32,000 nucleotides of DNA from an uncultured Chloroflexia bacterium (GCA_963704755.1 OY969938.1:990001-1022000), one strand, 5' to 3'. Shown: positions 4,004 to 21,269, counted from the first letter of the stretch. The notes: generated from the letters alone by a model not told the origin. Translations and numbers: made by a program.

Positions 4004-4334
4004 GTTCTCGGCCGAGAAGGCGGCTTATTTTACCAAATGTTAATCAACACTTTGAAAACCCTTAAAGTTTACTGATTATGATAAATAAGATGGTCACGTG
4101 ATAGAACAGAATATGAAATCATCGCTGAAACACCTAGAAAAACAACAATCCCAGGGAATAAGATTTTCTCCCTGTTAAGTCAGGCGCGCCAGGTTGCAAA
4201 ATAACCCGGTGCGCTTTTTATTTATCCCATCTCTGGTGGTCCTATCTGTGAATTTGCAAACCCCGACCCTTAAAAACAAGCTTTTCACTGTTGCACAATT
4301 ACAGTTTTTACCGGCTGAAAACCGGCAGTATCAT

Positions 4335-5954
4335 ATGGAATTAAAGGATCTCAATTTTTCAAGTTGTTGTATGGATGCCGACACCCTGGTCAGCGATATT
4401 GCCAACCAGTTCAACAAGAATCCCGGCCTATCGGGTGTAATTTTGACGAAGCAAGGGCATTTCACCGGCATCCTATCGCGAGACCGCTGTTTCGAGGCCT
4501 TGGGGCGCCCATTTGGTATTGAGATTTACTCCCGCCGGACCGGGATCGAGTTCTACCGCCAGATCGGCGTTCCCGCGCTCATCCTGGATGCGGCTACCAG
4601 TGTCCAGGTCGCCGTGAAAACCGCGCTCTCGCGTAAGCCGGAAGACATCTACGACCCGATCGTTCTGCGCCTGAACGACCACGGGTATGGCCTGATCGAT
4701 ATGCACACCATCCTTTTGGCCCAGTCCGAGCTGATGGAAAACCTATACGAAGAAGTCCAGTTGCTCTCGACCAAAGATCCCCTGACCAATATCAACAACC
4801 GGCGGGGCTTTCTGGAAGCGGCCGAACCGGCCATCAGCACGGCTCTCGATCACCAATCCGATCTGTCTGCGTTTATGGTCGATATCGACCATTTTAAAAT
4901 TGTGAATGATATTTACGGCCATTTCGTAGGCGACCGGGTGATTTGCGCCGTAGCCGCCGAATGTCAGAAGAGCATCCGCCACACTGACCTGTTGGGCCGC
5001 TTCGGAGGCGAAGAATTTATGGTGCTTCTGCCCAACACGCCCCTGGAAACGGCGCAATTTGTGGCCGAACGGGTGCGCTCGCGGATCGAGAACCTGATGA
5101 TTTACGTGGATGGCTATCAGATTTCGGTAACGGTCAGCATCGGCATTTGCAGCATGAAGGATTCGCGCGAATCCCTCGATCATTTGCTGACCCAAACCGA
5201 CCAGGCCATGTATGCCGCCAAATGGAGCGGGCGTAACCAGATCATCACCTGGGATGCCCTCCTGAGCCAAAAACTGAGACAGAATGGCTCGATCCTGGAG
5301 ACCTTTGGGGACGACCCTGCCCGGAACTGGTTCTACAGCCATAATGGCGCCACACGGATCTACGACGAGACGATCGAAGGTTGGGCGCATGCCCTTGAGC
5401 TGCGGGATAAAGAAGCCGAAGGCCATGCTAAAAGGGTCTCGAATATGGCCGTTGAACTGGCCGGGCGCGTGGGCGTCAATGAAGAGCAACTGGTGGATAT
5501 CCGCCGGGGAGCGCTGCTGCATGACATCGGCAAAATTGCCGTTCCGGATAATATCCTGTTCAAACCAGGCGCACTGACCGAAGAAGAGTGGGAACTTATG
5601 CGCAAACATCCCGTGTACGCCTATGAGCTGCTTTCGCCAATTGCGTACCTGAAAAATTCCATCGACATCCCCTATTGTCACCACGAGCATTGGGATGGGA
5701 GCGGGTATCCGCGCGGGCTCAAAGAGACCGAGATTCCTCTATCCGCGCGCATATTCACGATCATCGACGTTTGGGACGCGCTCAGCACCGATCGCTGTTA
5801 TCGGCCGGCCTGGCCGCCGGATGAAGTCAAGCAGTATATTCAGAACGAATCAGGCAAGTTATTCGACCCAGACATTGTACCGATCTTTTTAACAATACTG
5901 GATGAAAAAGCGCATCTTTCGGCAACGAAAGAGACGGCTGAAAACTTCGTGTAA
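4335..5954 (+). CDS. Bifunctional c-di-GMP enzyme: N-terminal CBS-like sensor, GGDEF diguanylate cyclase, HD-GYP phosphodiesterase
   Basis: GGDEF domain: RRGFLEAAE and GRFGGEEFMVLLP (intact GGEEF). HD-GYP domain: HAKRVSNMA, LLHDIGKIAVPD, HHEHWDGSGYPRGL. The ORF track starts at TTG 4194; the first ATG is at 4335 (MELKDL...). The start is uncertain. Confidence 0.88.
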   Translation: MELKDLNFSSCCMDADTLVSDIANQFNKNPGLSGVILTKQGHFTGILSRDRCFEALGRPFGIEIYSRRTGIEFYRQIGVPALILDAATSVQVAVKTALSRKPEDIYDPIVLRLNDHGYGLIDMHTILLAQSELMENLYEEVQLLSTKDPLTNINNRRGFLEAAEPAISTALDHQSDLSAFMVDIDHFKIVNDIYGHFVGDRVICAVAAECQKSIRHTDLLGRFGGEEFMVLLPNTPLETAQFVAERVRSRIENLMIYVDGYQISVTVSIGICSMKDSRESLDHLLTQTDQAMYAAKWSGRNQIITWDALLSQKLRQNGSILETFGDDPARNWFYSHNGATRIYDETIEGWAHALELRDKEAEGHAKRVSNMAVELAGRVGVNEEQLVDIRRGALLHDIGKIAVPDNILFKPGALTEEEWELMRKHPVYAYELLSPIAYLKNSIDIPYCHHEHWDGSGYPRGLKETEIPLSARIFTIIDVWDALSTDRCYRPAWPPDEVKQYIQNESGKLFDPDIVPIFLTILDEKAHLSATKETAENFV

Positions 5955-6698: not shown

Positions 6699-6765
6699 TT
6701 CCTGACTGTTCAGCCTGGCGGAGAATAAACCCGAGTAGTTACAAAAACTCCCTTAATTGCCTATT

Positions 6766-7795
6766 TTAGCGGTTGTCGCTAAGTTGAAGCTGCCGTACGA
6801 AACGCTGCCCGCGCTGCGGGTGCTTGATATCCTTTAGCGGGATATTCACTAGGCGTTTACAGATTTTAGCAATCCGCTCGGCGGAGGTGCCGTTGTTCTG
6901 TAACGGGGTCAGGCTGCGCAGCATGGATAAGTCGAAGTTCGAATAGACTTCCTTACCCAGGGCAATACCGGTATACACCACCGTGGAATACTGGGTGACC
7001 AGCACGTCGCAGTTGGCGATCATGTGGTTCGTATTCCCATCCGTAAATATCGGCGCATCCGGAAAGACCATACGGATTTCGCGTTCGGCCCGAGCGACAT
7101 TCTCGTTGGGGTGCAGCTTGAAAATCACCGGCCTTGTTCCGGCAATTTGTTTCACGTTTTGCAGAAACTGGATGCGATTATCCGGCCGGCCGGTCTCGCG
7201 CACGCTGGAAGTGGCCACCAGGACATAATTCCTGTGCGGGAAAGGATTGTCCAGGTAGGCCCTGACGTTGTCGTAATTGGGAATACCGGTAACGATGACT
7301 TTCTTCTGCTTTAACCCCCTTGCGGATGAAGAAATCACGGTAGCCCGGAGAAGCCACACAAAAAACGTCGTAAGAATCCGAAAGCCCCGTGGCGGCTGTG
7401 TTGGCCAGGTAGCGCGGCAGGTTCAGGTTGCGTACCAGGTGATAAACCCAGGTCTCCGGTTCGGTAATGCCTTCTTGCACCAGCACCAACCGTTTGCCGT
7501 GGACATTACGTGGGACAAAGAGATCCGTACAGGTCACCACCAGATCGTACTTATGGCGCTTGCCGCCCACATCCACCGGCAGGTTATTATGCTTTAAGTA
7601 ATCCTGGGTGGCTTTACGGTGCGAGCCCCCCAGGATGGTAAATTCTAACAAGCCGGCCTTACGCAGCCATTCAAGATTGCCATCCGCATAAAACGGCGTG
7701 AAGTAGCACGACATATCCGTCATTTGGCCGGCAATTTTATGCATCATCGTGGTCTGGTTGAGAGACCCGCAAATAAATAAGGCTTTTTTCCTCAT
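6766..7795 (-). pseudogene. GT-B-fold transferase-like gene (TagF/KpsS-like), disrupted by a 1-nt frameshift
   Basis: Two overlapping minus-strand ORFs (7178..7795 and 6766..7359) are offset by one frame. Reading ...FFIRKG then LKQKKVIVTGIPNYDN... is continuous if one G is removed from the G5 run (ccccc at 7315-7319 on +). The C-terminal part has FKLHPNE and CDVLVTQYSTV, reminiscent of CDP-glycerol glycerophosphotransferase-type enzymes. The family call is weak. Confidence 0.6.
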
Positions 7796-8846: not shown

Positions 8847-8957
8847 GTAACTACTCAGCCACTGTAGAGGATGAGGGTGTTTTTTATTATTTTTGTGTGC
8901 TTTGCACACAAAAATAATAAAAAACACCCGATCCCTCCATAGTAGCTGAGTAGTTAC
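8847..8957. repeat. 111-bp imperfect palindromic element (tttttattatt family) immediately downstream of the protease operon
   Basis: Perfect 26-bp core stem: gggtgttttttattatttttgtgtgc (8875-8900) with gcacacaaaaataataaaaaacaccc (8904-8929), loop ttt. Outer arms gtaactactcagc (8847-8859) and gctgagtagttac (8945-8957). It probably terminates the 18465-8961 operon. Confidence 0.8.
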
Positions 8958-8960
8958 TTT

Positions 8961-10082
8961 TTATCCTTTGCTGCCGAAAATAGCCCGCAGGAAGCGAAAC
9001 AAGATATCCAGGAAGCCGCCACCGCCGGTCTCCGGTGCAGGTTTGGGCAGCGGCTGTGAAGTCACCGTGGCGATTTGGGCGGCGCTGCAATATTGCTTGA
9101 TATAATCGTAGGGGATGCGGGCATAACCGGGCGCCACCGAACTTTGGCGGGCCCAGCCGGTGCCCCAACTGTTGCGAAAAATAAAATAGCCCCCACCGGG
9201 CACCTGGGGATCATCCTCATAGCCAACCATACAGATGGCGTGGCCGCCCTCCAGGTGATCGTTGGCCAGCGGCAAACGGAGATCACCGCTGGTCTGGGCC
9301 GGCTCGGCAAACCAGAAGGTATACACCGGTAGGGCAAAGGCCACCGGTGAGCCACCGGCCAGCGTCTGGCGAAAGCTGTCCACTGAGCGGGGTGGGAGCT
9401 TTTGGGTGCCTGATATACGATAAGATACTGCCTGGCTAGCCGCCCCCGCCGGCGGAGGATCCTGGCTCTCATTGCCGGCAATCGGGGTGGGGTTATAGGG
9501 CCAGGCCTGCTCCGGGCACTCGCCCTCATCCAACAGGCATTGCATCCCCACGCTGATCAGCGTGCCCGGGCCAGGCAGCAAGTCGTGTTTCTTGCAATCC
9601 CAATACAAAAACTGTTCCGAAAGGTCCGGTGTGGGCGCTGACGCGCCCAGCCAGAATTCCCGTACGGCGGTGGTGGCAAAAGCGACACAGGTGCCCCGCT
9701 GCCCCTGGTCGCGGATGGGCGGCATCTGGCCGTGCAAATCCACTTTGGGGGGCAGCGGGGCAAACGACACATCCGCTGATCCGCCGGTATCCCCGCCTTC
9801 GAGGGTATCCTGGGCGCCCAGGCCATGCCGGCGCACTTCATCCGGCGCAAAAGAAACGCCCGGGGGTAAAGCGTTCTGAGCCAGCTCGACCAGCCGGCCG
9901 GCCTGCTCTGCCGGCAGGACCAGGATTTGAGCCAAGTCGGCCAGGCCATTCTCCCTGGTCGCCGCGCTGACCAGCTCTTCGGCGGTCGTAATCCAGTAAG
10001 CCGCCAGCTTTTGCAGTGCATCCGCGGGAAAAGATGCGATGCCGCTCAATGGGGTCCCTTGTTTTTCTGTCGTATTTTCCAT
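8961..10082 (-). CDS. Papain-family (C1) cysteine peptidase, no signal peptide, C-terminal amphipathic tail
   Basis: IRDQGQRGTCVAFA (oxyanion Gln plus catalytic Cys132, codon 9687-9689), GGHAICMVGYED (His), YFIFRNSWGTGWA (Asn/Trp). An N-terminal ~100-aa helical region precedes the catalytic domain. The C-terminus is GGGGFLDILFRFLRAIFGSKG. Confidence 0.85.
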   Translation of the reverse strand: MENTTEKQGTPLSGIASFPADALQKLAAYWITTAEELVSAATRENGLADLAQILVLPAEQAGRLVELAQNALPPGVSFAPDEVRRHGLGAQDTLEGGDTGGSADVSFAPLPPKVDLHGQMPPIRDQGQRGTCVAFATTAVREFWLGASAPTPDLSEQFLYWDCKKHDLLPGPGTLISVGMQCLLDEGECPEQAWPYNPTPIAGNESQDPPPAGAASQAVSYRISGTQKLPPRSVDSFRQTLAGGSPVAFALPVYTFWFAEPAQTSGDLRLPLANDHLEGGHAICMVGYEDDPQVPGGGYFIFRNSWGTGWARQSSVAPGYARIPYDYIKQYCSAAQIATVTSQPLPKPAPETGGGGFLDILFRFLRAIFGSKG

Positions 10083-10121
10083 CCTTTCGAATCGTGATTA
10101 TTCAGGCATGTTCAATATGTT

Positions 10122-10186
10122 CCCGAATTTGAGGTGTTTGTAGGGGCTTCGCCCCCACAAACACCTCAAATTCGGGGTTCTTACCC
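10122..10186. repeat. Palindromic repeat, cccgaattt...ttcttaccc family (copy 1)
   Basis: cccgaatttgaggtgtttgt (10122-10141) pairs with acaaacacctcaaattcggg (10157-10176) around an aggggc-ttc-gcccc apex. It is followed by ttcttaccc (10178-10186). It sits in the only large gap of the operon. Confidence 0.85.
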
Positions 10187-10205
10187 GTTTGGCTGAACAA
10201 TTCCT

Positions 10206-11669
10206 TCAAATATTTTCTTTCGATAATTCGGCCGCCCGCAGTTTAACCGCAGGATCGCCGAATAAAACGTACCCTTCCGCATCGTTGCGCTCGATCCAGG
10301 TGGTGGCCAGGGTATTCTGATCCACATCCGCTCCCCAGCCGGCTTGCTGCAGGATGGCGCTCAGGCTGGTCGAAAGCGCCGCATAGCGCTCGTTAAAGTC
10401 CTTCAGGGCGTACCCCAACGGTTGGCCGGTCAAGATGCGCCCGATCGCGTTTTGAAAAGTCTGAATCTGCGGCCCGGCGGAGGGCGAAACGATCGAATAG
10501 CCCCAGGCGCGCTCCACGTGGCCGATACAGGCCAGCGCCCCACCGGCGGGATGGGCCAGCCAGGTTTGCGGCAGGGCCGCGAAAAAAGGCGCCTCGGCGA
10601 TACCCGGCGGGGGCTGCCCCGGCGTGTGGATAAACTGGTCCTGGGACGGGGTACCGGCGCCGTAACAGGCGAAATGGAAAATGACCATCCCGCGGACGCA
10701 GGCATTGGGCGGTACATCCGCCGCCGAAAAATAGTGCTCCGGCGCGATGGTTCCAAAGCCGGGCCAATCCTGGCAAAGCAAGGCGCCTTGCGCCTTTGGC
10801 TGGGCCGGATCGCCTCGCGGAAAGCCCATGCCGTGGCTGGCAGTAAAGAGGAACGCCGGCGGTTTTCCGCCGGCCGGTGCGCTGATGGTTTGCAGCAAAG
10901 CCGCCTTACTGGCCGCCTGGCCGATCAACTTTTGAGACTGGAAGCCCCATTGCCCGGCTACCCCGGGCGCAGCCGGTTCCTGGTCATGGGCCGGGCTGCC
11001 ATCCGCCAGCGGACCGGCCAATAGATCGGCCGAAATTTTGGTTGCCTGGTCGAAGGGGTGGCGAGTGGCGAAAAACACAGCCTCTTTTTTGTTTTCCACG
11101 CTCTCAGCCGTCTCGTATTCGATCACCGCGGCGGCGTAGGCGGCGTATTGGTCCGCCTGCTCGAAATACAACCGGCCAACCCCGTAATCGACGTCCAGCA
11201 ATTGGCCAAATTCGAAAGGGATCTGTACCGGGCTGCCGACCAGCAGTAAATAATAGGGCAGCCTGGTTGGCTGCACGTTGCCCGGCGAGACGCCATAGCG
11301 GCCCAGCCAGTCTTCCCATCCTTCGCCTGGCCGATAATCCAGCACCTTGACCAGGGCATCGTTCCCGATCTGTTTGCGGCGGTGTTCGATCAGGGTCTGG
11401 AAAGCGGCTTTGACCGCCGGGGTCTCGTCTTTGGCAAAAACGATGCCCCAGCCGGCCTGGCTGATCTCGGCCGGATCGACCCCCAGGGGCAGCCCCAGGA
11501 ATGGCGTGCGGATCTTGTGCCAGATGCTGGCCAGCCAATTCAGGGTATTTTTGTCACCCACTTCCCCGCGAGCCATTTGCGCTGCTGCCGAGACCGGCAT
11601 AGGCGCTACCAGGTACTCCCCGGTTATGCCGTTGATGCCATTCAGATAAATCAGGTCCTCATCGCTCAT
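10206..11669 (-). CDS. Gingipain-like (peptidase C25 / clan CD) cysteine peptidase, no signal peptide
   Basis: C25-like N-terminal pattern: YYLLLVGSPVQIPF ... DVDYGVGRL ... AAAVIEYE. Caspase-fold dyad candidates are FLFTASHGMG (His) and VIFHFACYGAG (Cys). GGGAGA RBS lies upstream of ATG 11669. Family assignment is by motif memory only. Confidence 0.6.
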   Translation of the reverse strand: MSDEDLIYLNGINGITGEYLVAPMPVSAAAQMARGEVGDKNTLNWLASIWHKIRTPFLGLPLGVDPAEISQAGWGIVFAKDETPAVKAAFQTLIEHRRKQIGNDALVKVLDYRPGEGWEDWLGRYGVSPGNVQPTRLPYYLLLVGSPVQIPFEFGQLLDVDYGVGRLYFEQADQYAAYAAAVIEYETAESVENKKEAVFFATRHPFDQATKISADLLAGPLADGSPAHDQEPAAPGVAGQWGFQSQKLIGQAASKAALLQTISAPAGGKPPAFLFTASHGMGFPRGDPAQPKAQGALLCQDWPGFGTIAPEHYFSAADVPPNACVRGMVIFHFACYGAGTPSQDQFIHTPGQPPPGIAEAPFFAALPQTWLAHPAGGALACIGHVERAWGYSIVSPSAGPQIQTFQNAIGRILTGQPLGYALKDFNERYAALSTSLSAILQQAGWGADVDQNTLATTWIERNDAEGYVLFGDPAVKLRAAELSKENI

Positions 11670-11710
11670 GCATGTCTCCCGCTGTTGAAATCCTGCCTCA
11701 AGCCGGGCTC

Positions 11711-13075
11711 TTACTGGAAAGCATCGCCGGAAAACTCGAGCCAGATAAAAGCACCGTAAGGCTGGGCATCAGCCTGCTTGACCGCGGCCTGGATATCGGC
11801 CTGGGACATGGGCGTCACCTGGCTGGCAATGTTGACGTCGCCCAGGTATTGCTGTAATTCACCGCCGAATGACTCGCCGTTGTAATCGTCCGGTGATACG
11901 CCGATGGTGATCGTCCCAAACGCATTGTAGAAATCGCCAGATTGGTAGGTCGCGCTGGCCTGGTTGGGATCATAGGCATATCCGCGCGCATCCGCCTGGA
12001 CGGCCTGGGGAAAATCCACTTCGGCGGTCACATCCGAATCCAACCAGAGGTCCTGGACCATGGTTGTCCAGGGAAAGGTGGCCAGGAAAGCCTTCTGCAA
12101 ATTGGTATCTTTCCAGGCGCTTCCGGCTACGTGAACGGTCACCTTACCGGTTGGCGGTGCCAGAAAGCTCGGAAAGGGCAGGTTTTCAGCCTGGGCCCTG
12201 GCCTGGGCACTCTCATACCATTTGTCGATTTCGGGGTGTTTGGCGATCAATTCCGGCCGCATGGCCTGCCAGACCTCGAGCTGCACCGGGCTGCGTCCTT
12301 CGATACCCCCCAGAACCGGCGTTTCCTGGCCCGGAACGGAAAACCACAGCTCCCCGGCCGGTAAGCGAGAATTTCCGGTCAGCGAGCCGGTCTGCGGATC
12401 GACCACCCCGTGCAGGCTGACCGCGCCTTCGTACACCTGGACCATGCTGAGCTTTTCATCCGGCAAGTACAACACCGTAAACCAGGTGCCATTGGTCTGT
12501 ACGGTCGAACCGGGAGTTTGGATGTCCACACTCGAAAGGCAGTCGTTCAGCACCCCGGTCAACCCGGCCGTGGCGCACACTCCCAGCCCGCTGGCCGAAT
12601 CTTCTTTGCGGCAGGTCTGGCGGGTCAACCCGGCGCTTTGAAACAAGAACAGCTTCAGGCAGCCCTGGATCTGGATTTCGGCCTGGCCGTTTTTATCGGT
12701 CGTGACCTGGCTATCGGCCTGCAAATCGACCAGGTCATTGGTCAAGACTTCCGCAAGCGGTTGAGTCTGGCCGGCAAAGACCGAGGAAACCAGCCGTTGG
12801 ACCTGCGAATTGACTTTAACCACGGCTACCTGGGTCGGCTGCGGAGTAATCGTATCCAACAGTGCCGCGGTGGGCGTCAGCGTGTCCAAAACGGTCGTCG
12901 CTGTGGCCGGATTGGTAGCGGTTGGGGCGAACGCCTGGGTCACCTCCAGGGCAGGCGGCTGTGGGGTTGGCGATGGGCTGGCTTGTGGGGCAGCCGAACA
13001 GGCCGGTATGGCCAGGGCTAACAAGATTAATAATCCCCAGGTACTACCTTGGGGTCGATTGGTTTTACCTTTCAT
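11711..13075 (-). CDS. FecR-domain-like lipoprotein with Pro/Thr-rich linker
   Basis: Signal peptide plus lipobox (LLALAIPAC/S). AAGGAG RBS lies 7 nt before ATG 13075; a GTG at 13078 is also possible. The P/T/A-rich linker is followed by LVDLQADSQVTTDKNGQAEIQI...LFLFQSAGL and GTWFTVLYL...VQVYEGAVSL, which resemble the FecR beta-sandwich pattern. Confidence 0.6.
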   Translation of the reverse strand: MKGKTNRPQGSTWGLLILLALAIPACSAAPQASPSPTPQPPALEVTQAFAPTATNPATATTVLDTLTPTAALLDTITPQPTQVAVVKVNSQVQRLVSSVFAGQTQPLAEVLTNDLVDLQADSQVTTDKNGQAEIQIQGCLKLFLFQSAGLTRQTCRKEDSASGLGVCATAGLTGVLNDCLSSVDIQTPGSTVQTNGTWFTVLYLPDEKLSMVQVYEGAVSLHGVVDPQTGSLTGNSRLPAGELWFSVPGQETPVLGGIEGRSPVQLEVWQAMRPELIAKHPEIDKWYESAQARAQAENLPFPSFLAPPTGKVTVHVAGSAWKDTNLQKAFLATFPWTTMVQDLWLDSDVTAEVDFPQAVQADARGYAYDPNQASATYQSGDFYNAFGTITIGVSPDDYNGESFGGELQQYLGDVNIASQVTPMSQADIQAAVKQADAQPYGAFIWLEFSGDAFQ

Positions 13076-13092
13076 CACCGCACTCCTTCGCG

Positions 13093-16000
13093 CTAATCTT
13101 CACCGCTTTCGATAAACCTGCTCCAGCGCGTATACCAGCGCTGCGCCACACCCCGGCCGGCCAAGGCGCCCAGGGTCAGCGCCAGGCCGCATAACCCGGC
13201 CTCGATCAAAGCCAATACCTGGTTCCAGCCCGCGAAATGGGCCATCCAGGTCTGCCACCAGCCGGCTGTAAAATGATCGAATTCGCTCGCGAAAAAAGAT
13301 CCCGACAGGGCAATCGCTATCCCGCTGCCCAGGGCCGGCCAGGCCAGGAACAGCGCCTCGACCAGCCCAAACGTGACCGCACCGGCCAGGCCTCGCGCCA
13401 GCCGGCCGAGGGGCGAATCTCCCCGTCCTAAATACAGGGCCGCGCTGAAGCCGGCTCCCGCCAGGAACCCCAGCGGCAGCACTGCCGGGGCTTTGGATAT
13501 CGAAATGCCATTCAAGAGGGCCACGACCAGGTTGGCCAGCCCAAAACCCAGCCAGCCCAGTACAAACACCAGCCCGTTCCTTTGCGGCCGTCCGGGTTGG
13601 CTCTGCCGGTCCAGGCGCAGGGACCTGGCCATCCCGGCTGTCAGGGCAGTGACCCCGGCCAGTAACAGGCCCCAGTACGAAAACAGCGCGAAAAAGATCG
13701 TCCCAAGCTGCGACTGGCTCAACCAGCCCACCACCAGCCGCTCGAACCCCAGGGCCAATCCAGCGCCAATCCCGGTCCCGGCCGCGATCCAGGTGATCTG
13801 GCATCCATTGCGCAAAATCCGCCGGCCGGCGCGCCAGCCATAGACGGCCAGCCTTTGCAGCACGCTGGCTTTCTTGATTTCCGCCACGGCCTGCCCGGCA
13901 TCGGCCAGGGCGCCGGCCAGTTCTGCCCGGCGGATAAACCGGCGGCCGGAGGTATCCAGGTCTGCCAGGGCATGCTCCAGGCGATAAAATGCCTCGCGTT
14001 GCCCCTCCTGAAGGGCCATCAGCGCCAGGGCTGCCGTTCGCCGGCCAATAGTATCCCGGCCGGCCGCGGCGGCCCAGGCCAGGTCGCCATACCCGCCTTC
14101 CTGTTCGGGCCTCTTGGGCAAGTCCGGATCGTTCAAGCCCAGCAGCCGCCCGGCCAGTTCACGAGCCGAGCCTTTCAACGGGTTCACCCCGGCCACCATC
14201 CCGCCCAGTTCGATTGCGCGGATGAAACCCAGACTGCTTTCCAGTGCTTGCAGCCTGTCCAGCCAGGGGCCGGCCGGAACATCCCGGGCTACGGCCGAGC
14301 GCAGTAAAAACAGCACCTTTACCGGTCTTGGATCCAGGTGAGCGCCGTATTCTTCCAGCTTGCGCAATTGGGCCCGGCCGGCCAGGGCGCGATCGCCGGT
14401 TTTGCTTCCCCGGGCGGCCTGAGCAATCTCGGCTAACCAGATCCGCCAGGCCCGCTCCAGCTCGTCACCGGCATTGTAGGCTTGCTGCACCTGCTCACCG
14501 CCCAGGCGGATGGCCTCGTCGGCGATCATCTGGTTAGGAAAGGCGTACCGGTAACAGCCCTGGTTCAGGCGCCGGACCAACAGTTCGGCCTTGACCAGGC
14601 GTTCCAAAATCTGCTCCACGGCCGGCGGAGCCAGCGCCGGCCCTTGCCCGTCCTTGAAGCCATTCAGCGCCGGACTGGCAAGGATCTGCTCTGGCGCAGC
14701 CCAATGGTCCATTTCCGGTGCCGCCATGGCGACCAGGATTTGCCCGGCCAGCCCGGACTGGTCGGCAAAATGGGTTTCCAATTCGTCCTTCATGTAGCGC
14801 ACCAGGATGCCATCCGCACCGCCGGCCTGCTTCAGGTACAGGTTTTCATCGATCAAAGGCGGGTGCAGCTCGCGGGCATGCTGGTACAGCCAGGTGCAGG
14901 TGATCTGTAGCTGGCCGGGGTCAACCCAGGCGGCCGTGTCCTCTGCGCTCGAATCGGTGTACAGGTTGGCCAGGTCGGGGGCAATCAACTCGCGGGCCAG
15001 GGTGGGGTTCAGCGTGACCGGCCAACCCAACGTATCCAGCGGATCGACGATAGCTTCCACGGCCTCATCCAATCCCAACGGTTCCACTTCGATCCAGTTG
15101 CCCGAGCGGTTGGCCAGCCAGGCCTGTAAGTCTCCCAGGTTGGCCAGTGCATCCTTGTGAATCGCGAAGACCAGCTTCAGGCGCTCACCCAGGGCCTCCA
15201 GGGCGGCATTCAATTCGGCCAGCATGGCTTGCTGGTGTTTCCCCTCCAGGCCGGTCACCTGCTCGAACTGGTCCAGGATCAAAGCCAGGGCGGCAAACTG
15301 GCTGAAATTGACCGTGCGCAGCACCTCTGCCAGGGGCGCGTCTCCGCCGACACCCGGGTTGACCGGGTGGCCGGCCACGCGGTAGCCCAGGCGGAATTCT
15401 TGGGCCAGGTCGGCATACGCCGCGATCGAAACTACCAGCCAGTTCTCCTGCTCCAAAACCGGGCGCAGCCCGGCCTCGACCAGCGAGGTCAGCCCTACCC
15501 CGGCTTCGCCGAACACGAGGGTGAGTGGGTAATCGTTCAGGTGCTGGCGGATCTCGGCGATCACCTTTTTGCGCCCGTTGAACAAGTCCTGGTCCTCGCA
15601 CTGGTAAGGCGCCAGGAATTTGTACGGTAGGCGTTGAGCCGGTTTGAAGCGCTGCTCGGGGTTGAACAGGATCCCATCCGGCAGGTGCATGTACAGCACC
15701 GGCACGGCCCACTGCCCGCCGGCTTGCTCCAACAGACCGGCCCGGGCGCGGTTGACCGCCAGGTCCACGCAGCCGGTCTCGAGCAGGCTGGCGAACATCT
15801 GGCAGGCGAACTGGCGCGCCACCTGGTTCTCGACCCGGGCTTGCATACACACCAAAGCCGGGCATCCGGCCCGGACCAATTGCGGTCCCACCCCGGCGAA
15901 GGCATCCTGGCTGGACTGCTGCCCACTCTCACAAGCCGCCAGGAAGATCAGCTCCGGCAGGCGCGGAACGGTGCCGAACAGCTTGACCAGTTCAGCCGAC

Positions 16001-16746
16001 GAGACGCCCACCGGCCCCTGGCTGCCGTCGGGGTAGGTCCCGCTCATCAGCAAGTAGCCGGTCTGCTCGCTCTCCTTCCAATCGCCGTGGCCGACATAAT
16101 ACAGGATATCGAAACCGCCTTCCTGGTTGAGCCGGTCGGCCAGTTGCTGGGCCGTGACCGCGCCGGAGAGCACGTCGTACTCAATCTGCCCGCTGAAACG
16201 GCCGAAAACCTCCTGGATCGATTGCTGCTCCTGGTTTACATCCACGTAAAGGGAGTTGCCGGGCGGAAAGGGGCTGGAAATCAGCACCAGCGCCTTGAGC
16301 GGGCCGGCCGGGAGCGGCAAACCCCAGGGCTGGTCATTTTGCAGGAAGCGTGAAAAATACAGGCCGGCCGCCGGTGCGGCCGGAACCCAGTTGTCCCCCT
16401 CCGGCCGGTACAACCGCTCCCAGGGAATGCGCTGCAGGGCCGGGACCGTTTCATCCAGGTGCAGGCGCAGGCGGATTCCCCGCTCGCCGGCCGCCGTAAC
16501 TGCTCCTTGAAAAGCGCCGGCCAGGCTGCCCGGCAGCAGAGATTGGTACAGCAACTCGCCCAGTGCCTGAGCCGCGTCTGCGCCGGGCTTTTCTTGCAAC
16601 GAACCTGCCTGGGTGGTCAAACCGGCCGGGTCAAGCGTCCCTGAGCCTCCGCTGCCGTCCGGCAGTTCCAGGCGTACCCGGCAAGGTTGTCCGGCCCCTT
16701 GCGAAAGCACTTCTATGCTGACCGGATCCGGCGAAAATTTGAGCAT
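13093..16746 (-). CDS. CHAT-domain protease fused to a STAND-like P-loop NTPase module and a C-terminal 6-7 TM domain
   Basis: CHAT: IPWERLY, ILYYVGHGDW (His220, codon 16087-16089), LIFLAACESGQ (Cys272, codon 15931-15933). NTPase-like: FNGRKKVIAEI...LTLVFGEAGVGLTSLVEAGL (Walker A without Lys, 15487-15510) and ALILDQFEQV (Walker B). The last ~236 aa (13093-~13800) form 6-7 hydrophobic helices. Confidence 0.85.
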   Translation of the reverse strand: MLKFSPDPVSIEVLSQGAGQPCRVRLELPDGSGGSGTLDPAGLTTQAGSLQEKPGADAAQALGELLYQSLLPGSLAGAFQGAVTAAGERGIRLRLHLDETVPALQRIPWERLYRPEGDNWVPAAPAAGLYFSRFLQNDQPWGLPLPAGPLKALVLISSPFPPGNSLYVDVNQEQQSIQEVFGRFSGQIEYDVLSGAVTAQQLADRLNQEGGFDILYYVGHGDWKESEQTGYLLMSGTYPDGSQGPVGVSSAELVKLFGTVPRLPELIFLAACESGQQSSQDAFAGVGPQLVRAGCPALVCMQARVENQVARQFACQMFASLLETGCVDLAVNRARAGLLEQAGGQWAVPVLYMHLPDGILFNPEQRFKPAQRLPYKFLAPYQCEDQDLFNGRKKVIAEIRQHLNDYPLTLVFGEAGVGLTSLVEAGLRPVLEQENWLVVSIAAYADLAQEFRLGYRVAGHPVNPGVGGDAPLAEVLRTVNFSQFAALALILDQFEQVTGLEGKHQQAMLAELNAALEALGERLKLVFAIHKDALANLGDLQAWLANRSGNWIEVEPLGLDEAVEAIVDPLDTLGWPVTLNPTLARELIAPDLANLYTDSSAEDTAAWVDPGQLQITCTWLYQHARELHPPLIDENLYLKQAGGADGILVRYMKDELETHFADQSGLAGQILVAMAAPEMDHWAAPEQILASPALNGFKDGQGPALAPPAVEQILERLVKAELLVRRLNQGCYRYAFPNQMIADEAIRLGGEQVQQAYNAGDELERAWRIWLAEIAQAARGSKTGDRALAGRAQLRKLEEYGAHLDPRPVKVLFLLRSAVARDVPAGPWLDRLQALESSLGFIRAIELGGMVAGVNPLKGSARELAGRLLGLNDPDLPKRPEQEGGYGDLAWAAAAGRDTIGRRTAALALMALQEGQREAFYRLEHALADLDTSGRRFIRRAELAGALADAGQAVAEIKKASVLQRLAVYGWRAGRRILRNGCQITWIAAGTGIGAGLALGFERLVVGWLSQSQLGTIFFALFSYWGLLLAGVTALTAGMARSLRLDRQSQPGRPQRNGLVFVLGWLGFGLANLVVALLNGISISKAPAVLPLGFLAGAGFSAALYLGRGDSPLGRLARGLAGAVTFGLVEALFLAWPALGSGIAIALSGSFFASEFDHFTAGWWQTWMAHFAGWNQVLALIEAGLCGLALTLGALAGRGVAQRWYTRWSRFIESGED

Positions 16747-16770
16747 TCCAACCTGATGGCGCGAGGGTAG

Positions 16771-17112
16771 TCAGCGTCCGGCGTAGAAATTGATCAGGTT
16801 CGGTTTTGGCTTATCTCCTGGAGAATAGGAGATCGGCCCGGAACCGGATGGCTTGACCGGCAGCACCGAAGCGAAGCCTTTGAGGATCAAAGGAGCCGTA
16901 ATGCCCACGTTGATCGACGTCCAGGGGTTATCCGGCCGGATGCCCTGGATCAGCACCAATCCCCCGGAGGCCAGCACCATCACAAAAGTCACCCCCCAAT
17001 AGAAGCCGCTGCGTAGATAAGTGGGCAGGTTGGGCGATTCACGCAGTGAATACCATTTGAGCAGTTCGCCCAACACACCGCCGATGACACCGTAGATAAA
17101 GCTCATAGCCAT
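16771..17112 (-). CDS. Small integral membrane protein (3 predicted TM helices), unknown function
   Basis: ORF 16771..17133. ATG at 17112 (MAMSFIYGV...) is preceded by GGAGGTGG at good spacing, so it is preferred over 17133. Hydrophobic segments: FIYGVIGGVLGELL, FYWGVTFVMVLASGGLVLI, INVGITAPLILKGFASVL. Confidence 0.65.
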   Translation of the reverse strand: MAMSFIYGVIGGVLGELLKWYSLRESPNLPTYLRSGFYWGVTFVMVLASGGLVLIQGIRPDNPWTSINVGITAPLILKGFASVLPVKPSGSGPISYSPGDKPKPNLINFYAGR

Positions 17113-17169
17113 TTTCCACCTCCGTAAGGCCATGCCAACTTGAATAAAATTTATCCCTCCCCATGGGGG

Positions 17170-18465
17170 TTAAAGGGCAAAATAAAGGTTGGCCAGATCG
17201 TTCTCACCGGCAGTTCCGGTTTCGATTTTCAATTGTAGATTCCCTGCCCGCACCTCGGACGAGACCAGGGCCACCTGCTCCGCTTTCAGGGATGGGGCCG
17301 GTTCGGGTTGTTCGGGTAAATCGCATTCCCCGGTACGGATCAGGTCCAACGTCGCGGCGATCACCCGGTTGTTGGCCGGCAGTTTGCGATGTACCTCCTG
17401 GATGTAATAGCAGCTTGCCGACGGCAGCAGTGACGACCACAAAGGTACCGTGCCGTCGCCCGAATCCTCACCTTCGCCAATCGAGTTCATCACCAGGCCG
17501 GCCTGTCCGGAAGCCAGTTTCAATGAAACCAGCGTTTCGACGTTGAAACCGGCGATCACATCCACCGGAATCTGGGGGTGGATCTTCCATAAAACCGCAT
17601 ACATGAAGCGGGCTGCGTCCAGGTACTTTTGGCGAATAGACGGCACCGGCCAGGCCGCTGCATCATACAGGTCGAAATCGACCGGGTAAGGCCGCCCGGA
17701 AGGGAAACTCTCCGGGGGGGCCGGTAGGAGCTGGTAGACGCTGGGGAGGCTGTTGGCCAGCAGGCGCATCTCATTCTGGCTGTTCAACTTATCCACCGTC
17801 TCCATCATCGAGTTACCGTTGACCAGGTTATCGACCGCGTTGGCCGCGCCAAAATTGGGCGTCCCATGCAGGATCAGGCGCTTGACCCGCTTTTCGGCAT
17901 CCCCAGGGTGGCGGGCCATGTAGGTGCGCGCCACCAGGCCGCCCATGGAATGGGCCACCAGGGTAAACTCGCGATGCGGATCACCGGCCGCCCAGCGCTC
18001 GATACGCGCATGCAGCAGGTCGGCGTTGTACTCCATCGGGCGGCGCCAATCGTAAGGGAATTCATGCAGGTGGGTCTGCTTGTTGAGCCGGATACCGATC
18101 TTGAGATAGGTCAGTTTCTCCAGGCCAACCGGCAGACATTCTACCTCAGTCGATTCGTCATCGTTGCCCTCGGCATTCAGGCGCAGGTAACTGCCCTTGC
18201 CCTGCAGGAATACGAGCGGGTTGATCCACAACAGGGTCGTCACCCCGCGGATGCTGGACAGGTTGGAGCCCATAATCCCCGGCAGAAGGATCACTTCTTC
18301 CAACGCGCCCGGCGGCGGCTCGAACGAAATCTGGCGGAGTTCAGCGGCCGTATCCGCGCCGATCAAACGATCCACCGTCTCGGCGTCCTTACCGCTCTGG
18401 ATCTCCGCTTCGATCTCATCCAGCGAAAGGGCCGACCAGCGTTGCAACAGGTCATTGGTATTCAC
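17170..18465 (-). CDS. LCAT-like alpha/beta-hydrolase (putative phospholipase/acyltransferase), first gene of the operon
   Basis: LLPGIMGSNL, FPYDWR (the LCAT/PDAT hallmark), nucleophile elbow VAHSMGGLV, GDGTVP (Asp) and EVHRKL (His). GTG start at 18465 with AGAGGGA upstream. No signal peptide. Confidence 0.75.
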   Translation of the reverse strand: MNTNDLLQRWSALSLDEIEAEIQSGKDAETVDRLIGADTAAELRQISFEPPPGALEEVILLPGIMGSNLSSIRGVTTLLWINPLVFLQGKGSYLRLNAEGNDDESTEVECLPVGLEKLTYLKIGIRLNKQTHLHEFPYDWRRPMEYNADLLHARIERWAAGDPHREFTLVAHSMGGLVARTYMARHPGDAEKRVKRLILHGTPNFGAANAVDNLVNGNSMMETVDKLNSQNEMRLLANSLPSVYQLLPAPPESFPSGRPYPVDFDLYDAAAWPVPSIRQKYLDAARFMYAVLWKIHPQIPVDVIAGFNVETLVSLKLASGQAGLVMNSIGEGEDSGDGTVPLWSSLLPSASCYYIQEVHRKLPANNRVIAATLDLIRTGECDLPEQPEPAPSLKAEQVALVSSEVRAGNLQLKIETGTAGENDLANLYFAL

Positions 18466-18586: not shown

Positions 18587-18622
18587 CCCGAATTTAGAAG
18601 GTTTTCAGCCCCAAATTCGGGG
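18587..18622. repeat. Degenerate or short copy of the cccgaattt palindrome family
   Basis: cccgaattt (18587-18595) and aaattcgggg (18613-18622) flank a 17-nt loop. It lies upstream of the lipase gene. Confidence 0.55.
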
Positions 18623-18721
18623 AACACCAGATCATTCCAAAAATTGTGATTTTGTGTGTAAAGAATATAACATTTTACTCGGGCAGTTTCAATACCCACT
18701 GAGGGTCGCGCCAAATATTGT

Positions 18722-19951
18722 CAAGATCAATCCGGCGAATAAATTCGCTGCTACAAATGCACGAAACCCGGCCTTCGCCGGGTTCAACCCCGTTGAGGTA
18801 ATGTTTCATATAATAATCGACATAAATGAACAATTCATTCGAACTCGGCCTTCCCCTGGCGGAACCCCACGAAGGTGGGGTTTCGTGTCCTTGTTGCCGC
18901 GGTTTCAACCGCCGAGATCAAGCAGTGGCTCCAACCTTTCCAATCAATCCGGCAAATAAATTCGCTGCTACAAGGGCACGAAACCCGGCCTTCGCCGGGT
19001 TCAACCCCGTTGAGGTAATGTTTCATATAATATCGACATAAATGAACAATTCATACGAACTCGGCCTTCCCCTGGCGGAACCCCACACAGGTGGGGTTTC
19101 GTGTCCTGGTTGCCGCGGTTTCAACCGCCGAGATCAAGCTTTGGCTCCAACCTTTCCAATCAATCCGGCGAATAAATTCGCAGCTACGAGTTCACGAAAC
19201 CCGGCCTTCGCCGGGTTCAACTCCGTTGAGGTAATGATTCATATAATATCGACATAAATGAACAAATTATACGAATTCGGCCTTCCCCTGGCGGAACCCC
19301 ACGAAGGTGGGGTTCCGTGTCCTTGTTGCCGCGGTTTCAACCGCCGAGATCAAGCAGTGGTTGCAACCTTTCCAATCAATCCGGCGAATAAATTCGCAGC
19401 TACAAATGCACGAAACCCGGCCTTCGCCGGGTTCAACTCCGTTGAGGTAATGATTCATATAATATCGACATAAATGAACAATTCATACGAACTCGGCCTT
19501 CCCCTGGCGGAACCCCACGTAGGTGGGGTTTCGTGTCCTTGTTGCCGCGGTTTCAACCGCCGAGATCATGCTTTGGCTCCAACCTTTCCAATCAATCCGG
19601 CGAATAAATTCGCAGCTACGAGTACACGAAACCCGGCCTCCGCCGGGTTCGACCCTATTGAGCATTACTTCATACCAGTTCGCTATAAATGAACAAATCA
19701 TACGAACTCAGCCTTCGCCTGGCGGAACCCCACGAAGGTGGGGGTTCGTGTCCTTGTTGCCGCGGTTTCAACCGCCGAGATCATGCTTTGGCTCCAACCT
19801 TTCCAATCAATCCGGCTGCTACAAATGCACGAAACCCGGCCTTCGCCGGGTTCGACCCTATTGAGATAGTTTCTTATTCGTCAATAAATCAAATGAACGG
19901 CGTATAACAATCAACTTTTGCCTGGCTGAACCCACGAAGGTGGGGTTTCGT
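18722..19951 (+). repeat. Tandem array of ~216-bp multi-hairpin units, left block (about 5.7 units)
   Basis: Units are anchored on cataa|atgaac. Partial U0 18722-18825; U1 18826-19041, U2 19042-19257 and U3 19258-19473 (216 bp each); U4 19474-19688; U5 19689-19892 (12-bp deletion); partial U6 19893-19951. Each unit holds four hairpins: H1 ggaaccccac-NNNN-gtggggtttc, H2 gcggt-ttca-accgc, H3 gcgaa-taaa-ttcgc and H4 aacccggc-cttc-gccgggtt. Confidence 0.95.
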
Positions 19952-20594
19952 ATTCATAGAGTCAAAATTTCGATAACTAAACGCTTTATGTTTGCATATC
20001 ATCATCCACTTTTTGATACAATTTTTTCAACCATCGGAAATTCTCAGTAAATAATTTCCTAATCACAAAGTCACGAATTTCAGGAAAATTTAAAAAGGAT
20101 AGTCCCATGCGCACCCCCTTCACCCAACTCTATTTACACTGCGTCTGGTCAACCTGGGATCGGTTACCCTTACTTACTCCACAAAGCGAACCACCAATTT
20201 ATTCTGCAATTTTAAATAAGTGTCTTGAATTAAAGTGTGATGCCCTGGCAATCGGTGGGATTGAAGATCATATTCATCTTTTGGTCAGGTTTCCAGCCAC
20301 AATCAGTGTATCGGATTTCGTTAAAGAAGTTAAAGGAACTTCCTCTCACCTGATTAATCATCAAATTAATCCAGGTGAATTCTTCAAATGGCAAGGAGCA
20401 TATGGTGCCTTTACAGTAAGCAAAAACTTAGTGGAAGTGGTACAGAAATATATCAACCTGCAAAAACAACATCACGCCGATCAAAATCTCTACCATGAAT
20501 GGGAGCAAACTTTCTTTAACGAATAATATAATATTTTGAGTTTTCGCTAATAAAGCCCAGCTTCTGACGGAACCCCACGCAAGTGGGGTTTCGT
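19928..20594 (+). mobile_element. RAYT / IS200-like Y1 transposase cassette bounded by two copies of array hairpin H1
   Basis: Array homology stops after ...gaacccacgaaggtggggtttcgt (19928-19951). It resumes at ...ggaaccccacgcaagtggggtttcgt (20569-20594). The AT-rich interval in between carries only the transposase gene. Confidence 0.7.
20107..20526 (+). CDS. REP-associated tyrosine transposase (RAYT) / IS200-family Y1 HUH transposase
   Basis: 139 aa. LYLHCVWSTWDR, HUH motif EDHIHLLVRFP, catalytic Tyr region FKWQGAYGAFTVS, and YINLQKQHH. This matches the layout of Y1_Tnp (PF01797)-type proteins. Confidence 0.85.
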   Translation: MRTPFTQLYLHCVWSTWDRLPLLTPQSEPPIYSAILNKCLELKCDALAIGGIEDHIHLLVRFPATISVSDFVKEVKGTSSHLINHQINPGEFFKWQGAYGAFTVSKNLVEVVQKYINLQKQHHADQNLYHEWEQTFFNE

Positions 20595-21269
20595 GTCCTT
20601 GTTGCCGCGGTTTCAACCGCCGAGATCAAGCTTTGGCTCCAACCTTTCCATTCAATCCGGCGAATAAATTCGCTGCTACAAATGCACGATACCCGGCGTA
20701 GGCCGGGTTCGACCCCGTTGAGATATTGTTTCATATAACATCGCCATAAACGAACAACTCATACGAACTCGGCCTTCCCCTGGCGGAACCCCACGAAGGT
20801 GGGGTTTCGTGTCCTTGTTGCCGCGGTTTCAACCGCCGAGATCAAGCAGTGGCTCCAACCTTTTCAATCAATCCGGCGAATAAATTCGCTGCTACGAATG
20901 CACGAAACTCGGCCTTCGCCGGGTTCAACCCCGTTGAGGTAATGTTTCATATAATATCGACATAAATGAACAATTCATACGAACTCGGCCTTCGCCTGGC
21001 GGAACCCCACGAAGGTGGGGTTTCGTGCCCCAGTTGCCGCGGTTTCAACCGCCGAGATCATGCTTTGGCTCCAACCTTTTCAATCAATCCGGCGAATAAA
21101 TTCGCTGCTACAAATGCACGAAACCCGGCCTTCGCCGGGTTCAACCCCGTTGAGGTAATGATTCATATAATATCGACATAAATGAACAATTCATACGAAC
21201 TCGGCCTTCGCCTGGCGGAACCCCACGAAGGTGGGGTTTCGTGTCCTTGTTGCCGCGGTTTCAACCGCC
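20556..21269 (+). repeat. Tandem array of ~216-bp multi-hairpin units, right block (about 3.3 units), same orientation as left block
   Basis: Partial U7 ~20556-20749, U8 20750-20965 (its first codon is acg, not atg), U9 20966-21181, partial U10 21182-21269. Homology ends inside H2 at ...tcaaccgcc. Confidence 0.95.

Follow-up and report, generated by a model that had tools for sequence, protein, structure and literature searches.

What is the function of an operon that encodes a membrane-embedded CHAT-STAND protein together with a lipase-like hydrolase and two further cysteine peptidases? Such an operon, composed of six genes called G1 to G6 here in the order of their transcription, lies in a stretch of 32,000 nucleotides from an uncultured Chloroflexia bacterium (GCA_963704755.1, OY969938.1:990001-1022000), hereafter the window. 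The original prediction, made from the sequence alone, presented it as a candidate undescribed conflict or programmed-death system. On balance, and with moderate confidence, we infer that the operon represents the long form of a conflict module of the caspase-family protease-effector type, which brings about regulated cell death or growth arrest.

The six co-directional genes on the minus strand were all found, in an open reading frame (ORF) check of the window, at the coordinates first given for them, and the domains, the sequence motifs, the catalytic residues and both palindromes described at the outset were also in place (Table 1). The assignments of LCAT, CHAT, STAND-like, C25 and C1 domains all stand above the Pfam gathering cut-offs. 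As for the intergenic gaps, said to measure 14-41 bp apart from a single one of 123 bp, this description suits most of them but not the first: in transcription order they amount to 57 (or 36), 24, 14-17, 41 and 123 bp. G2 might alternatively start at an upstream ATG at 17133, but its orthologues favour 17112.

Synteny and modularity of the locus

The six proteins were mapped by tblastn onto GTDB-representative loci, with one genome per GTDB species; the loci recovered exclude the window's own genome. G3 has about 46 full-length homologues with 36-59% identity, and those with a name all belong to Chloroflexota, e.g. Longilinea arvoryzae. Full-length G3 relatives were found at about 22 loci, and G4 adjoins G3 in all 21 informative loci. 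Across Anaerolineae genera, 18 loci contain G5, 14 contain G2, 11 the LCAT gene and 10 G6. The full order G1-G2-G3-G4-G5-G6 is found in loci L003, L004, L005, L007, L009, L017 and L059. Co-localisation in other genomes, on which the original prediction had staked itself, is thus borne out, as the gene order recurs across Anaerolineae genera. Flanking genes vary among the genomes and are mostly metabolic. On plasmids, just partial CHAT or STAND matches to G3 were obtained; phage collections were not part of that search.

This synteny refutes the idea that six unrelated neighbours were brought together by chance. Flanking repeats and a RAYT element do mark the region as prone to rearrangement, but the same order in more than 12 genomes of several genera, with 31-79% protein identity, and the recurrence of subsets of the genes in other phyla and as fusion proteins make a fortuitous juxtaposition hardly credible.

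The six genes are, however, not one fixed unit, and G3 with G4 is their most constant pair. The LCAT gene can be swapped for a gene encoding an MBL-fold hydrolase, and the C1 peptidase gene can be absent. In Longilinea loci G6 is missing and G4 is duplicated, and distant clades keep G3 and G4 alone, with or without G5. G2, G5 and G6 are also found with a stand-alone CHAT gene. This short form, devoid of the STAND, transmembrane (TM) and lipoprotein parts, is composed of MBL, G2, G5, G6 and stand-alone CHAT genes. In L080, it comprises MBL, G2 (48%), G5 (50%), G6 (56%) and a 568-residue stand-alone CHAT protein, and in L076 MBL, G2, G5 and CHAT. In Bellilinea, a CHAT-only gene directly follows G6 in the long forms. 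Because of the short form and of this CHAT-only gene, G3 and G4 look like a sensor pair that was added onto an older protease-effector module. The proteins also differ in their degree of conservation, which decreases in the order G2 > G5 > G1 ≈ G6 > G3 > G4.

A membrane-embedded CHAT-nSTAND1 protein

G3 starts with a CHAT (caspase-fold) protease domain whose catalytic His220 and Cys272 are invariant in 36 homologues. It is followed by an nSTAND1 module. The original description of a STAND-like P-loop module is supported by the profile match and by the Walker B motif (LILDQFE, with D492 and E495 invariant), but not by the Walker A motif, which lacks its lysine. Its sequence in G3 is GEAGVGLTS, with Leu in place of Lys, and thus departs from GxxxxGK[ST]. 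The lysine is absent from all 44 family members in which the motif was found, their pattern being G-x-x-G-x-G-[L/V/M/I/Q]-[T/S]-S, whereas the distant nSTAND1 proteins in which it was found all keep GK[ST]. STAND activation normally requires this lysine. Because of its family-wide loss, the STAND module of G3 is probably a scaffold that does not hydrolyse nucleotides, rather than a working NTPase.

In the AlphaFold2 model of residues 700-1217 (predicted local distance difference test (pLDDT) score of 89, predicted template modelling (pTM) score of 0.82), the repeat sensor usual in STAND proteins appears to have given way to a helical arm followed by a set of six TM helices. The predicted TM module has short outer loops and an aromatic-rich loop at residues ~1136-1173. 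A Foldseek search with the arm and the TM module yielded no PDB match at E <= 0.001, the best having an E value of 0.17.

A lipoprotein as putative external sensor

G4 begins with a signal peptide that contains Cys27, followed by a linker rich in Pro and Thr, a FecR-like beta domain and a single lobe of a family-5 solute-binding protein (residues ~300-455). The lipobox C27 is invariant, and C140, C156, C168 and C180 are conserved. G4 had first been called a FecR-like lipoprotein. The window's protein does not reach the Pfam cut-off for FecR (E = 0.086, 13.7 bits for a cut-off of 24), but the call holds at the level of the family, as 10 of 21 orthologues match FecR at E <= 1 (best 6.8e-7). The C-terminal lobe had been missed. 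SBP_bac_5 is matched by 7 of the 21 orthologues, a profile search of the PDB with the C-terminal region retrieved YliB (4.8e-7), and the AlphaFold2 model of this domain (pLDDT ~90) is matched by Foldseek to YliB, NikA and OppA with a probability of 1.0 over ~160 columns. The similarity covers ~120-150 residues of SBP_bac_5, corresponding to one lobe rather than to the complete two-lobe fold. The N-terminal, FecR-like half was modelled from only five eligible homologues (word-based search), with a pLDDT below 50.

G4 is the fastest-evolving member of the operon and is often duplicated, as expected of a sensor. The G4-like partners of distant clades are larger, with 730-838 residues, and harbour additional SH3_3 or CARDB domains or larger SBP_bac_5 regions (Table 1); such additions indicate that the G4-type external sensor is modular. 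A strain with 99-100% identity, represented by a Logan contig (L001, 5678-7041), has G4 split over two frames into ORFs of 171 and 283 residues, which reflects either a natural frameshift or an assembly error.

The features of G4 might also be read as those of a signalling route that runs from the outside to the inside of the cell and uses regulated proteolysis. Once G4 had bound a peptide or a piece of cell wall outside the cell, G3 would pass the signal on and cleave a regulator, leading to changed gene expression or physiology rather than death, with the remaining enzymes processing envelope or secreted proteins. The FecR-like domain combined with a lobe of a peptide-binding protein speaks for this possibility, as do the SBP_bac_5, CARDB or SH3 domains of the larger homologues, and Kaur et al. 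(PMC7159879) noted caspase proteins that combine TM helices with extracellular binding-protein domains. Nevertheless, Pfam searches revealed no transcription factor, sigma or anti-sigma factor or kinase in the operon, three cytoplasmic cysteine peptidases with a lipase- or nuclease-type hydrolase make up a destructive rather than a regulatory tool-kit, and related modules were shown to be death effectors (PMC12642450, PMC12799240). We thus regard signalling of this kind, including the processing of envelope or secreted proteins, as quite unlikely.

An unannotated family of small membrane proteins

G2 has about three hydrophobic segments, the first of which is Gly-rich, and ends with a nearly invariant F-x-A-G-R-COOH sequence preceded by a Pro-rich linker of variable length. 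It is the most conserved gene of the cassette, with 54 invariant columns out of 113 among 13 orthologues. Neither G2 nor 25 diverse relatives have any Pfam match, even at E <= 10, and G2 defines an unannotated family, which comprises 113 clusters. In five of the nine contexts examined for divergent members, the immediate neighbour is a Peptidase_C14, C25-like or CHAT gene. It is tempting to speculate that the terminal Arg, acting as a tether or a product mimic, is accommodated by the S1 pocket of a clan CD peptidase specific for Arg.

Two other contexts were observed. In L060-L063 (e.g. L060, 7684-8106), an orphan G2 homologue with 58% identity and a 27-residue Pro-rich insertion has metabolic neighbours and no protease gene nearby. 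In L069 (828-2857) and L070 (2817-3233), a G2-like gene is immediately followed by a gene for a 533-residue HExxH protein without Pfam match; G2 could be paired there with a metallopeptidase rather than with a caspase-fold enzyme.

The hydrolase slot and the two other peptidases

G1 matches Pfam LCAT above the gathering cut-off (5e-14) and, in the PDB, the phospholipase LPLA2 (4x90, E = 0.005). Its score with DUF7379 is 25.7 bits, under the 33-bit cut-off. The catalytic residues are Ser172 (AHSMGG), an Asp (GDGTV) and His359, and the motifs are kept in 15 sequences. Having neither a signal peptide nor a TM segment, G1 is predicted to be cytoplasmic. It carries N- and C-terminal extensions and is a candidate protease-activated effector.

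The hydrolase slot upstream of G2 is interchangeable between LCAT-type and MBL-fold genes. An MBL-fold hydrolase takes the place of LCAT 5' of G2 in L006, L012 and L021, and in L059, which harbours the closest relative of the window's G3, an MBL gene precedes the LCAT gene. No match to an MBL gene was found in the window. In other phyla (Proteobacteria, Actinobacteria), an LCAT-like domain and a C-terminal CHAT domain are joined in single proteins of ~1000-1160 residues. Five such fusions were identified (Table 1), from Gammaproteobacteria, Actinomycetes and Syntrophobacteraceae, and three of them (L042, L046 and L048) additionally have a Peptidase_M17_N-like (macro-like) domain.

G5 and G6 match Pfam Peptidase_C25 (1e-9) and Peptidase_C1 (7e-16), respectively, both above the gathering cut-offs, and the absence of signal peptides and TM segments indicates that they are cytoplasmic as well. 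The clan CD dyad of G5, His279 (SHG) and Cys335 (FACYG), is kept in 16 sequences. The G5 family is large, with 1757 representatives at E <= 1e-30. Elsewhere, G5-like modules form part of fusion proteins, together with nSTAND1, CHAT, further copies of themselves or Trypsin plus NucA domains. A plasmid of Nostoc carries a G5-like gene that overlaps a CHAT-nSTAND1-WD40 gene at the start of the latter. G6 is composed of an N-terminal helical domain, a linker, a papain-like domain whose triad (Cys132, His281, Asn304) is kept in orthologues, and a conserved C-terminal amphipathic helix that probably directs the protein to the membrane. In the PDB, it is closest to xylellain, a papain-like protease of bacterial origin (3ois, 3e-27). 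Every orthologue of the four enzymes, G1, G3, G5 and G6, has its catalytic residues intact.

Proposed function and alternatives

We favour a conflict module for several reasons. The swap between LCAT and MBL genes matches two of the four types of latent death effectors that are activated by site-specific cleavage, namely alpha/beta-hydrolases, MBL proteins, Pepco and EACC1 (Evans et al. 2025, PMC12642450). Rosetta-stone fusions, intact active sites, a sparse distribution and variable flanks are in line with this reading, and so are the conserved synteny, the existence of a short form, the fastest evolution of G4 and slowest of G2, and a fitting predicted topology, with G1, G5 and G6 cytoplasmic, G4 exported and six TM helices confidently modelled in G3.

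The module might operate as follows. G3 would reside in the cytoplasmic membrane, with the CHAT domain, the nSTAND1 scaffold and the helical arm on the cytoplasmic side, and its six-helix bundle would touch G4 on the outer face, where this lipoprotein would present its FecR-like domain and its peptide-binding-protein lobe. An envelope cue, such as phage attack, envelope damage or a foreign ligand, might alter the contact between G4 and G3. G3 would then cluster via its STAND module without hydrolysis of nucleoside triphosphates, and the clustered CHAT domains would become active. They would cleave latent proteins of the operon, i.e. the LCAT/phospholipase-like G1, probably G2, the Arg/Lys-type clan CD peptidase G5 and the papain-type, membrane-targeted G6. 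The breakdown of lipids and proteins would kill or arrest the affected cell of the filament and spare its kin. In its general outline, the initial proposal, in which a sensor licenses proteases and a lipase, is plausible.

Several observations weigh against a conflict module. The operon is flanked by ordinary metabolic and transport genes both in the window and in Longilinea, with no defence island. The sole, partial defence-like context is that of L056, with extra CHAT-STAND genes and an MqsA-like gene. As anticipated in the original prediction, no named system was matched, none of the six proteins having a hit in PADLOC-DB v2 at E <= 0.1. All-against-all hhalign comparisons detected no shared adaptor (EAD-like) domain linking the six proteins (probability <= 1%). 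The R73-G74 pair of G1, a potential cleavage site, is only semi-conserved, in that eight of nine close orthologues keep it and distant ones do not, and the comparison of orthologues identified no second R-G site. G2 homologues also occur as orphans, the single binding-protein lobe makes ligand binding by G4 uncertain, and the G3 family has lost the Walker A lysine.

Some of these points would fit a different role, that of a HetF-like, membrane-anchored CHAT protease in development or envelope housekeeping, which, together with a lipoprotein and accessory hydrolases, would serve septum remodelling, filament fragmentation or the programmed death of certain cells within the normal life cycle of filamentous Anaerolineae, with no response to an invader. 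HetF is a CHAT-TM-TPR protein of the divisome in filamentous cyanobacteria such as Anabaena (PMC8406250), the CHAT domain of G3 has a weak HetF-type match in NCBIfam, and the family is confined to filamentous Chloroflexota. The housekeeping flanks and the lack of PADLOC matches would agree with such a role, and the loss of the Walker A lysine speaks against a classical NLR-type switch. However, the HetF equivalog score is 37.8 bits for a cut-off of 1200, and the CHAT-nSTAND1-6TM architecture of G3 differs from that of HetF. Only a small number of the species representatives were found to have the family, and the genes around it are not the same from one to the next. The exchange of LCAT for MBL and the duplication and fast divergence of G4 are typical of conflict systems. 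Furthermore, plasmids and unrelated phyla offer other instances in which members of the G2, G5 and hydrolase families accompany caspases, STAND, TPR and WD40 proteins. We therefore consider a developmental function rather unlikely, and retain the conflict module as the preferred reading.

We also propose, tentatively, a more specific version of this reading, which we deem possible but less than probable. G3 and G4 together would form an outside-in, NLR-like receptor, in which a membrane-embedded, hydrolysis-free STAND protein perceives an extracellular or envelope cue by way of the fast-evolving lipoprotein dedicated to it and sets off, at the inner face of the membrane, a death cascade of several proteases and a lipase or nuclease. 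In functional parallel with EACC1, G2 would be a hitherto unrecognised small membrane partner or effector of caspase-fold peptidases, and its C-terminal Arg may dock into the pocket of an Arg-specific protease.

To our knowledge, the bacterial STAND/NLR-like immune sensors studied so far detect intracellular signals, and we are aware of almost no experimental immunology in this phylum of filamentous bacteria. If our proposal is true, a membrane-embedded STAND protein with an external lipoprotein would show that caspase-type death modules can also be wired to surface sensing. The family-wide loss of the Walker A lysine raises the question of how STAND proteins might switch without nucleotide hydrolysis. 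The short and long forms would provide a clear example of a sensor pair grafted onto an existing protease-effector module. Finally, many caspase-linked loci across phyla have components that lack annotation, namely the G2 family and the widespread G5-type C25 peptidase, and naming and testing these would help annotate thousands of genes.

Surroundings of the operon

A candidate promoter upstream of G1 matches the sigma-70 consensus at 10 of 12 positions; it comes from a consensus scan alone, which is weak evidence and covers Chloroflexota promoters poorly. The palindrome that directly follows the G6 stop codon is probably the terminator of the operon or an inserted repeat element. A third, partial copy of its terminus (GTAACTACTCAGC) was observed at 6730-6742, an indication that the palindrome is a dispersed repeat and not a dedicated terminator. 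The 123-bp gap between G5 and G6 contains another palindrome, possibly an intra-operon hairpin or a small repeat element. Computed folding of this gap as RNA gives -60 kcal/mol (z = -9.6), and the corresponding gaps of relatives are far shorter. This palindrome and the small one in the putative G1 5' leader have 9-nt termini in common (CCCGAATTT / AAATTCGGG), for a chance expectation of 0. A small dispersed element present in two copies, or a regulatory hairpin common to both sites, might account for them. No known RNA elements were found in the non-coding parts of the window.

Upstream of the operon, at 18726-21000, eight copies of a ~216-nt repeat form an array, with 76-98% identity over a 90-nt core and GC-rich hairpins in each copy. 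The array, which is split by a RAYT-like ORF, resembles loci of the REP/RAYT type, although its repeat units are unusually long. The original prediction had described the operon as bracketed by the palindrome and the RAYT locus. Both are present in the window but not conserved in the loci of relatives, and hence they are incidental to the system.

Two further observations concern the downstream side. A protein with GGDEF and HD-GYP domains (turnover of cyclic di-GMP) is encoded at 4194-5954, ~3 kb downstream of the operon, and relatives show no link between the two. The overlapping minus-strand ORFs at 6766-7359 and 7178-7795, in different frames, jointly resemble one gene (weak Glyphos_transf match) and probably represent a frameshifted gene or a sequencing error.

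Table 1. Coordinates of the operon genes, of the domains of G3, of neighbouring elements and of related proteins (positions in the window, or in the locus named)
Feature	Position	Strand	Details
G1, LCAT/LPLA2-type alpha/beta-hydrolase	17170-18465	-	431 aa
G2, small membrane protein	16771-17112	-	113 aa
G3, CHAT-nSTAND1-TM protein	13093-16746	-	1217 aa
G3, CHAT (caspase-fold) protease domain	15721-16566	-	aa 61-342; Pfam CHAT 6e-21
G3, nSTAND1 module	14566-15627	-	aa 374-727; Pfam nSTAND1 5e-27, 96.1 bits (gathering cut-off 27.1)
G3, predicted winged-helix domain and helical-repeat arm	13867-14565	-	aa ~728-960; AlphaFold2
G3, predicted six-helix TM module	13105-13806	-	aa ~981-1214; hydropathy and AlphaFold2
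G4, lipoprotein	11711-13078 (or start 13075)	-	455 aa
G5, C25-like clan CD peptidase	10206-11669	-	487 aa
G6, papain-family (C1) peptidase	8961-10082	-	373 aa
Candidate sigma-70-type promoter	18664-18692	-	TTGAAA, 17 nt, TATATT, extended TG; ~200 nt upstream of G1
Palindrome after G6	8847-8957	.	111 nt; directly after G6 stop codon; 54-nt arms, 87% complementary
Palindrome in G5/G6 gap	10122-10176	.	55 nt; 26-nt arms, 96% complementary
Small palindrome in putative G1 5' leader	18587-18621	.	
IS200/Y1_Tnp (RAYT-like) ORF	20107-20526		splits the ~216-nt repeat array
LCAT-CHAT fusion protein	L042 992-4432		
LCAT-CHAT fusion protein	L046 7781-10672		
LCAT-CHAT fusion protein	L048 7781-11038		
LCAT-CHAT fusion protein	L054 5104-8553		
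LCAT-CHAT fusion protein	L049 2474-5965		
Large G4-like partner	L055 13631-15931		
Large G4-like partner	L056 13755-16271		
Large G4-like partner	L018 7803-9995		

Comparison with known systems

The logic of the operon has precedents, and in this respect the claim of an undescribed system does not stand. The obligatory pairing of an alpha/beta-hydrolase with a caspase was predicted by Kaur et al. 2020 (PMC7159879), and the activation of effectors by proteolysis has since been demonstrated (PMC12642450, PMC12799240). Like the alpha/beta-hydrolase-caspase module, exemplified by LcCaspase and LcHydrolase (PMC12642450), the operon combines a co-directional alpha/beta-hydrolase gene with a neighbouring gene for a caspase-fold protease whose dyad is intact and which is fused to a STAND-type module. 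Unlike LcHydrolase, which has a mass of ~33 kDa and two conserved R|G sites, G1 is an LCAT/LPLA2-type protein of 431 residues in which two such sites were not found. In addition, the window's STAND module is membrane-embedded and devoid of the Walker A lysine, and G2, G4, G5 and G6 are extra components.

Kaur et al. (PMC7159879) also described a membrane-associated, two-gene EACC1-caspase system, with small TM proteins encoded 5' of caspases. The caspase proteins of that system often have TM helices, STAND modules or extracellular binding-protein domains. The position of G2, 24 bp upstream of G3, and its Gly-rich helix are reminiscent of this arrangement (System 4; KrAvs12-EACC1), where the gene directly 5' of a caspase-X gene specifies a small membrane protein that has a Gly-rich helix, and one tested example comes from a species of Chloroflexota (Ktedonobacter). 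However, EACC1 has one TM helix and alpha+beta extensions, in contrast with the three or so hydrophobic segments of G2. We did not retain G2 as an EACC1 protein, given the absence of Pfam similarity at E <= 10 for G2 and 25 diverse members of its family, nor the CHAT domain of G3 as an EACC1-associated caspase, its NCBIfam caspase_w_EACC1 score being 19.3 bits for a cut-off of 140.

The caspase-MBL 'canu' (caspase-nuclease) loci defend bacteria against phage T4 (Tuck et al. 2025, PMC12799240). The relatives L006, L012, L021, L059, L076 and L080 similarly harbour an MBL-fold hydrolase gene beside caspase-fold protease genes. Nevertheless, the caspase of canu loci is MALT1-like with an Ig domain, not a CHAT-nSTAND1-TM protein, and the window has no MBL gene.

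The CHAT-nSTAND1-WD40/TPR proteins of cyanobacteria and other multicellular bacteria share the CHAT and nSTAND1 core with G3 and, on the Nostoc plasmid, a G5-like C25 neighbour. They differ from G3 in keeping the GK[ST] of Walker A and in having cytoplasmic repeat sensors, in place of which the window has an arm, six TM helices and a separate lipoprotein. As for HetF, it resembles G3 as a membrane-anchored CHAT protease of a filamentous multicellular bacterium, but it has a single TM helix as well as TPR repeats, lacks a STAND module and is not accompanied by an effector operon. Both its score and its architecture, given above, led us to reject G3 as a HetF protein.

The operon is a variant of the caspase-family protease-effector modules that, by its sequence, belongs to no named family. 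Its new elements comprise the membrane-embedded nSTAND1 module without the Walker A lysine, the dedicated FecR/SBP5 lipoprotein, the unannotated G2 family, and the association of three cysteine peptidases with a swappable hydrolase. This membrane-facing version of the caspase-type protease-effector logic is, in itself, undescribed.

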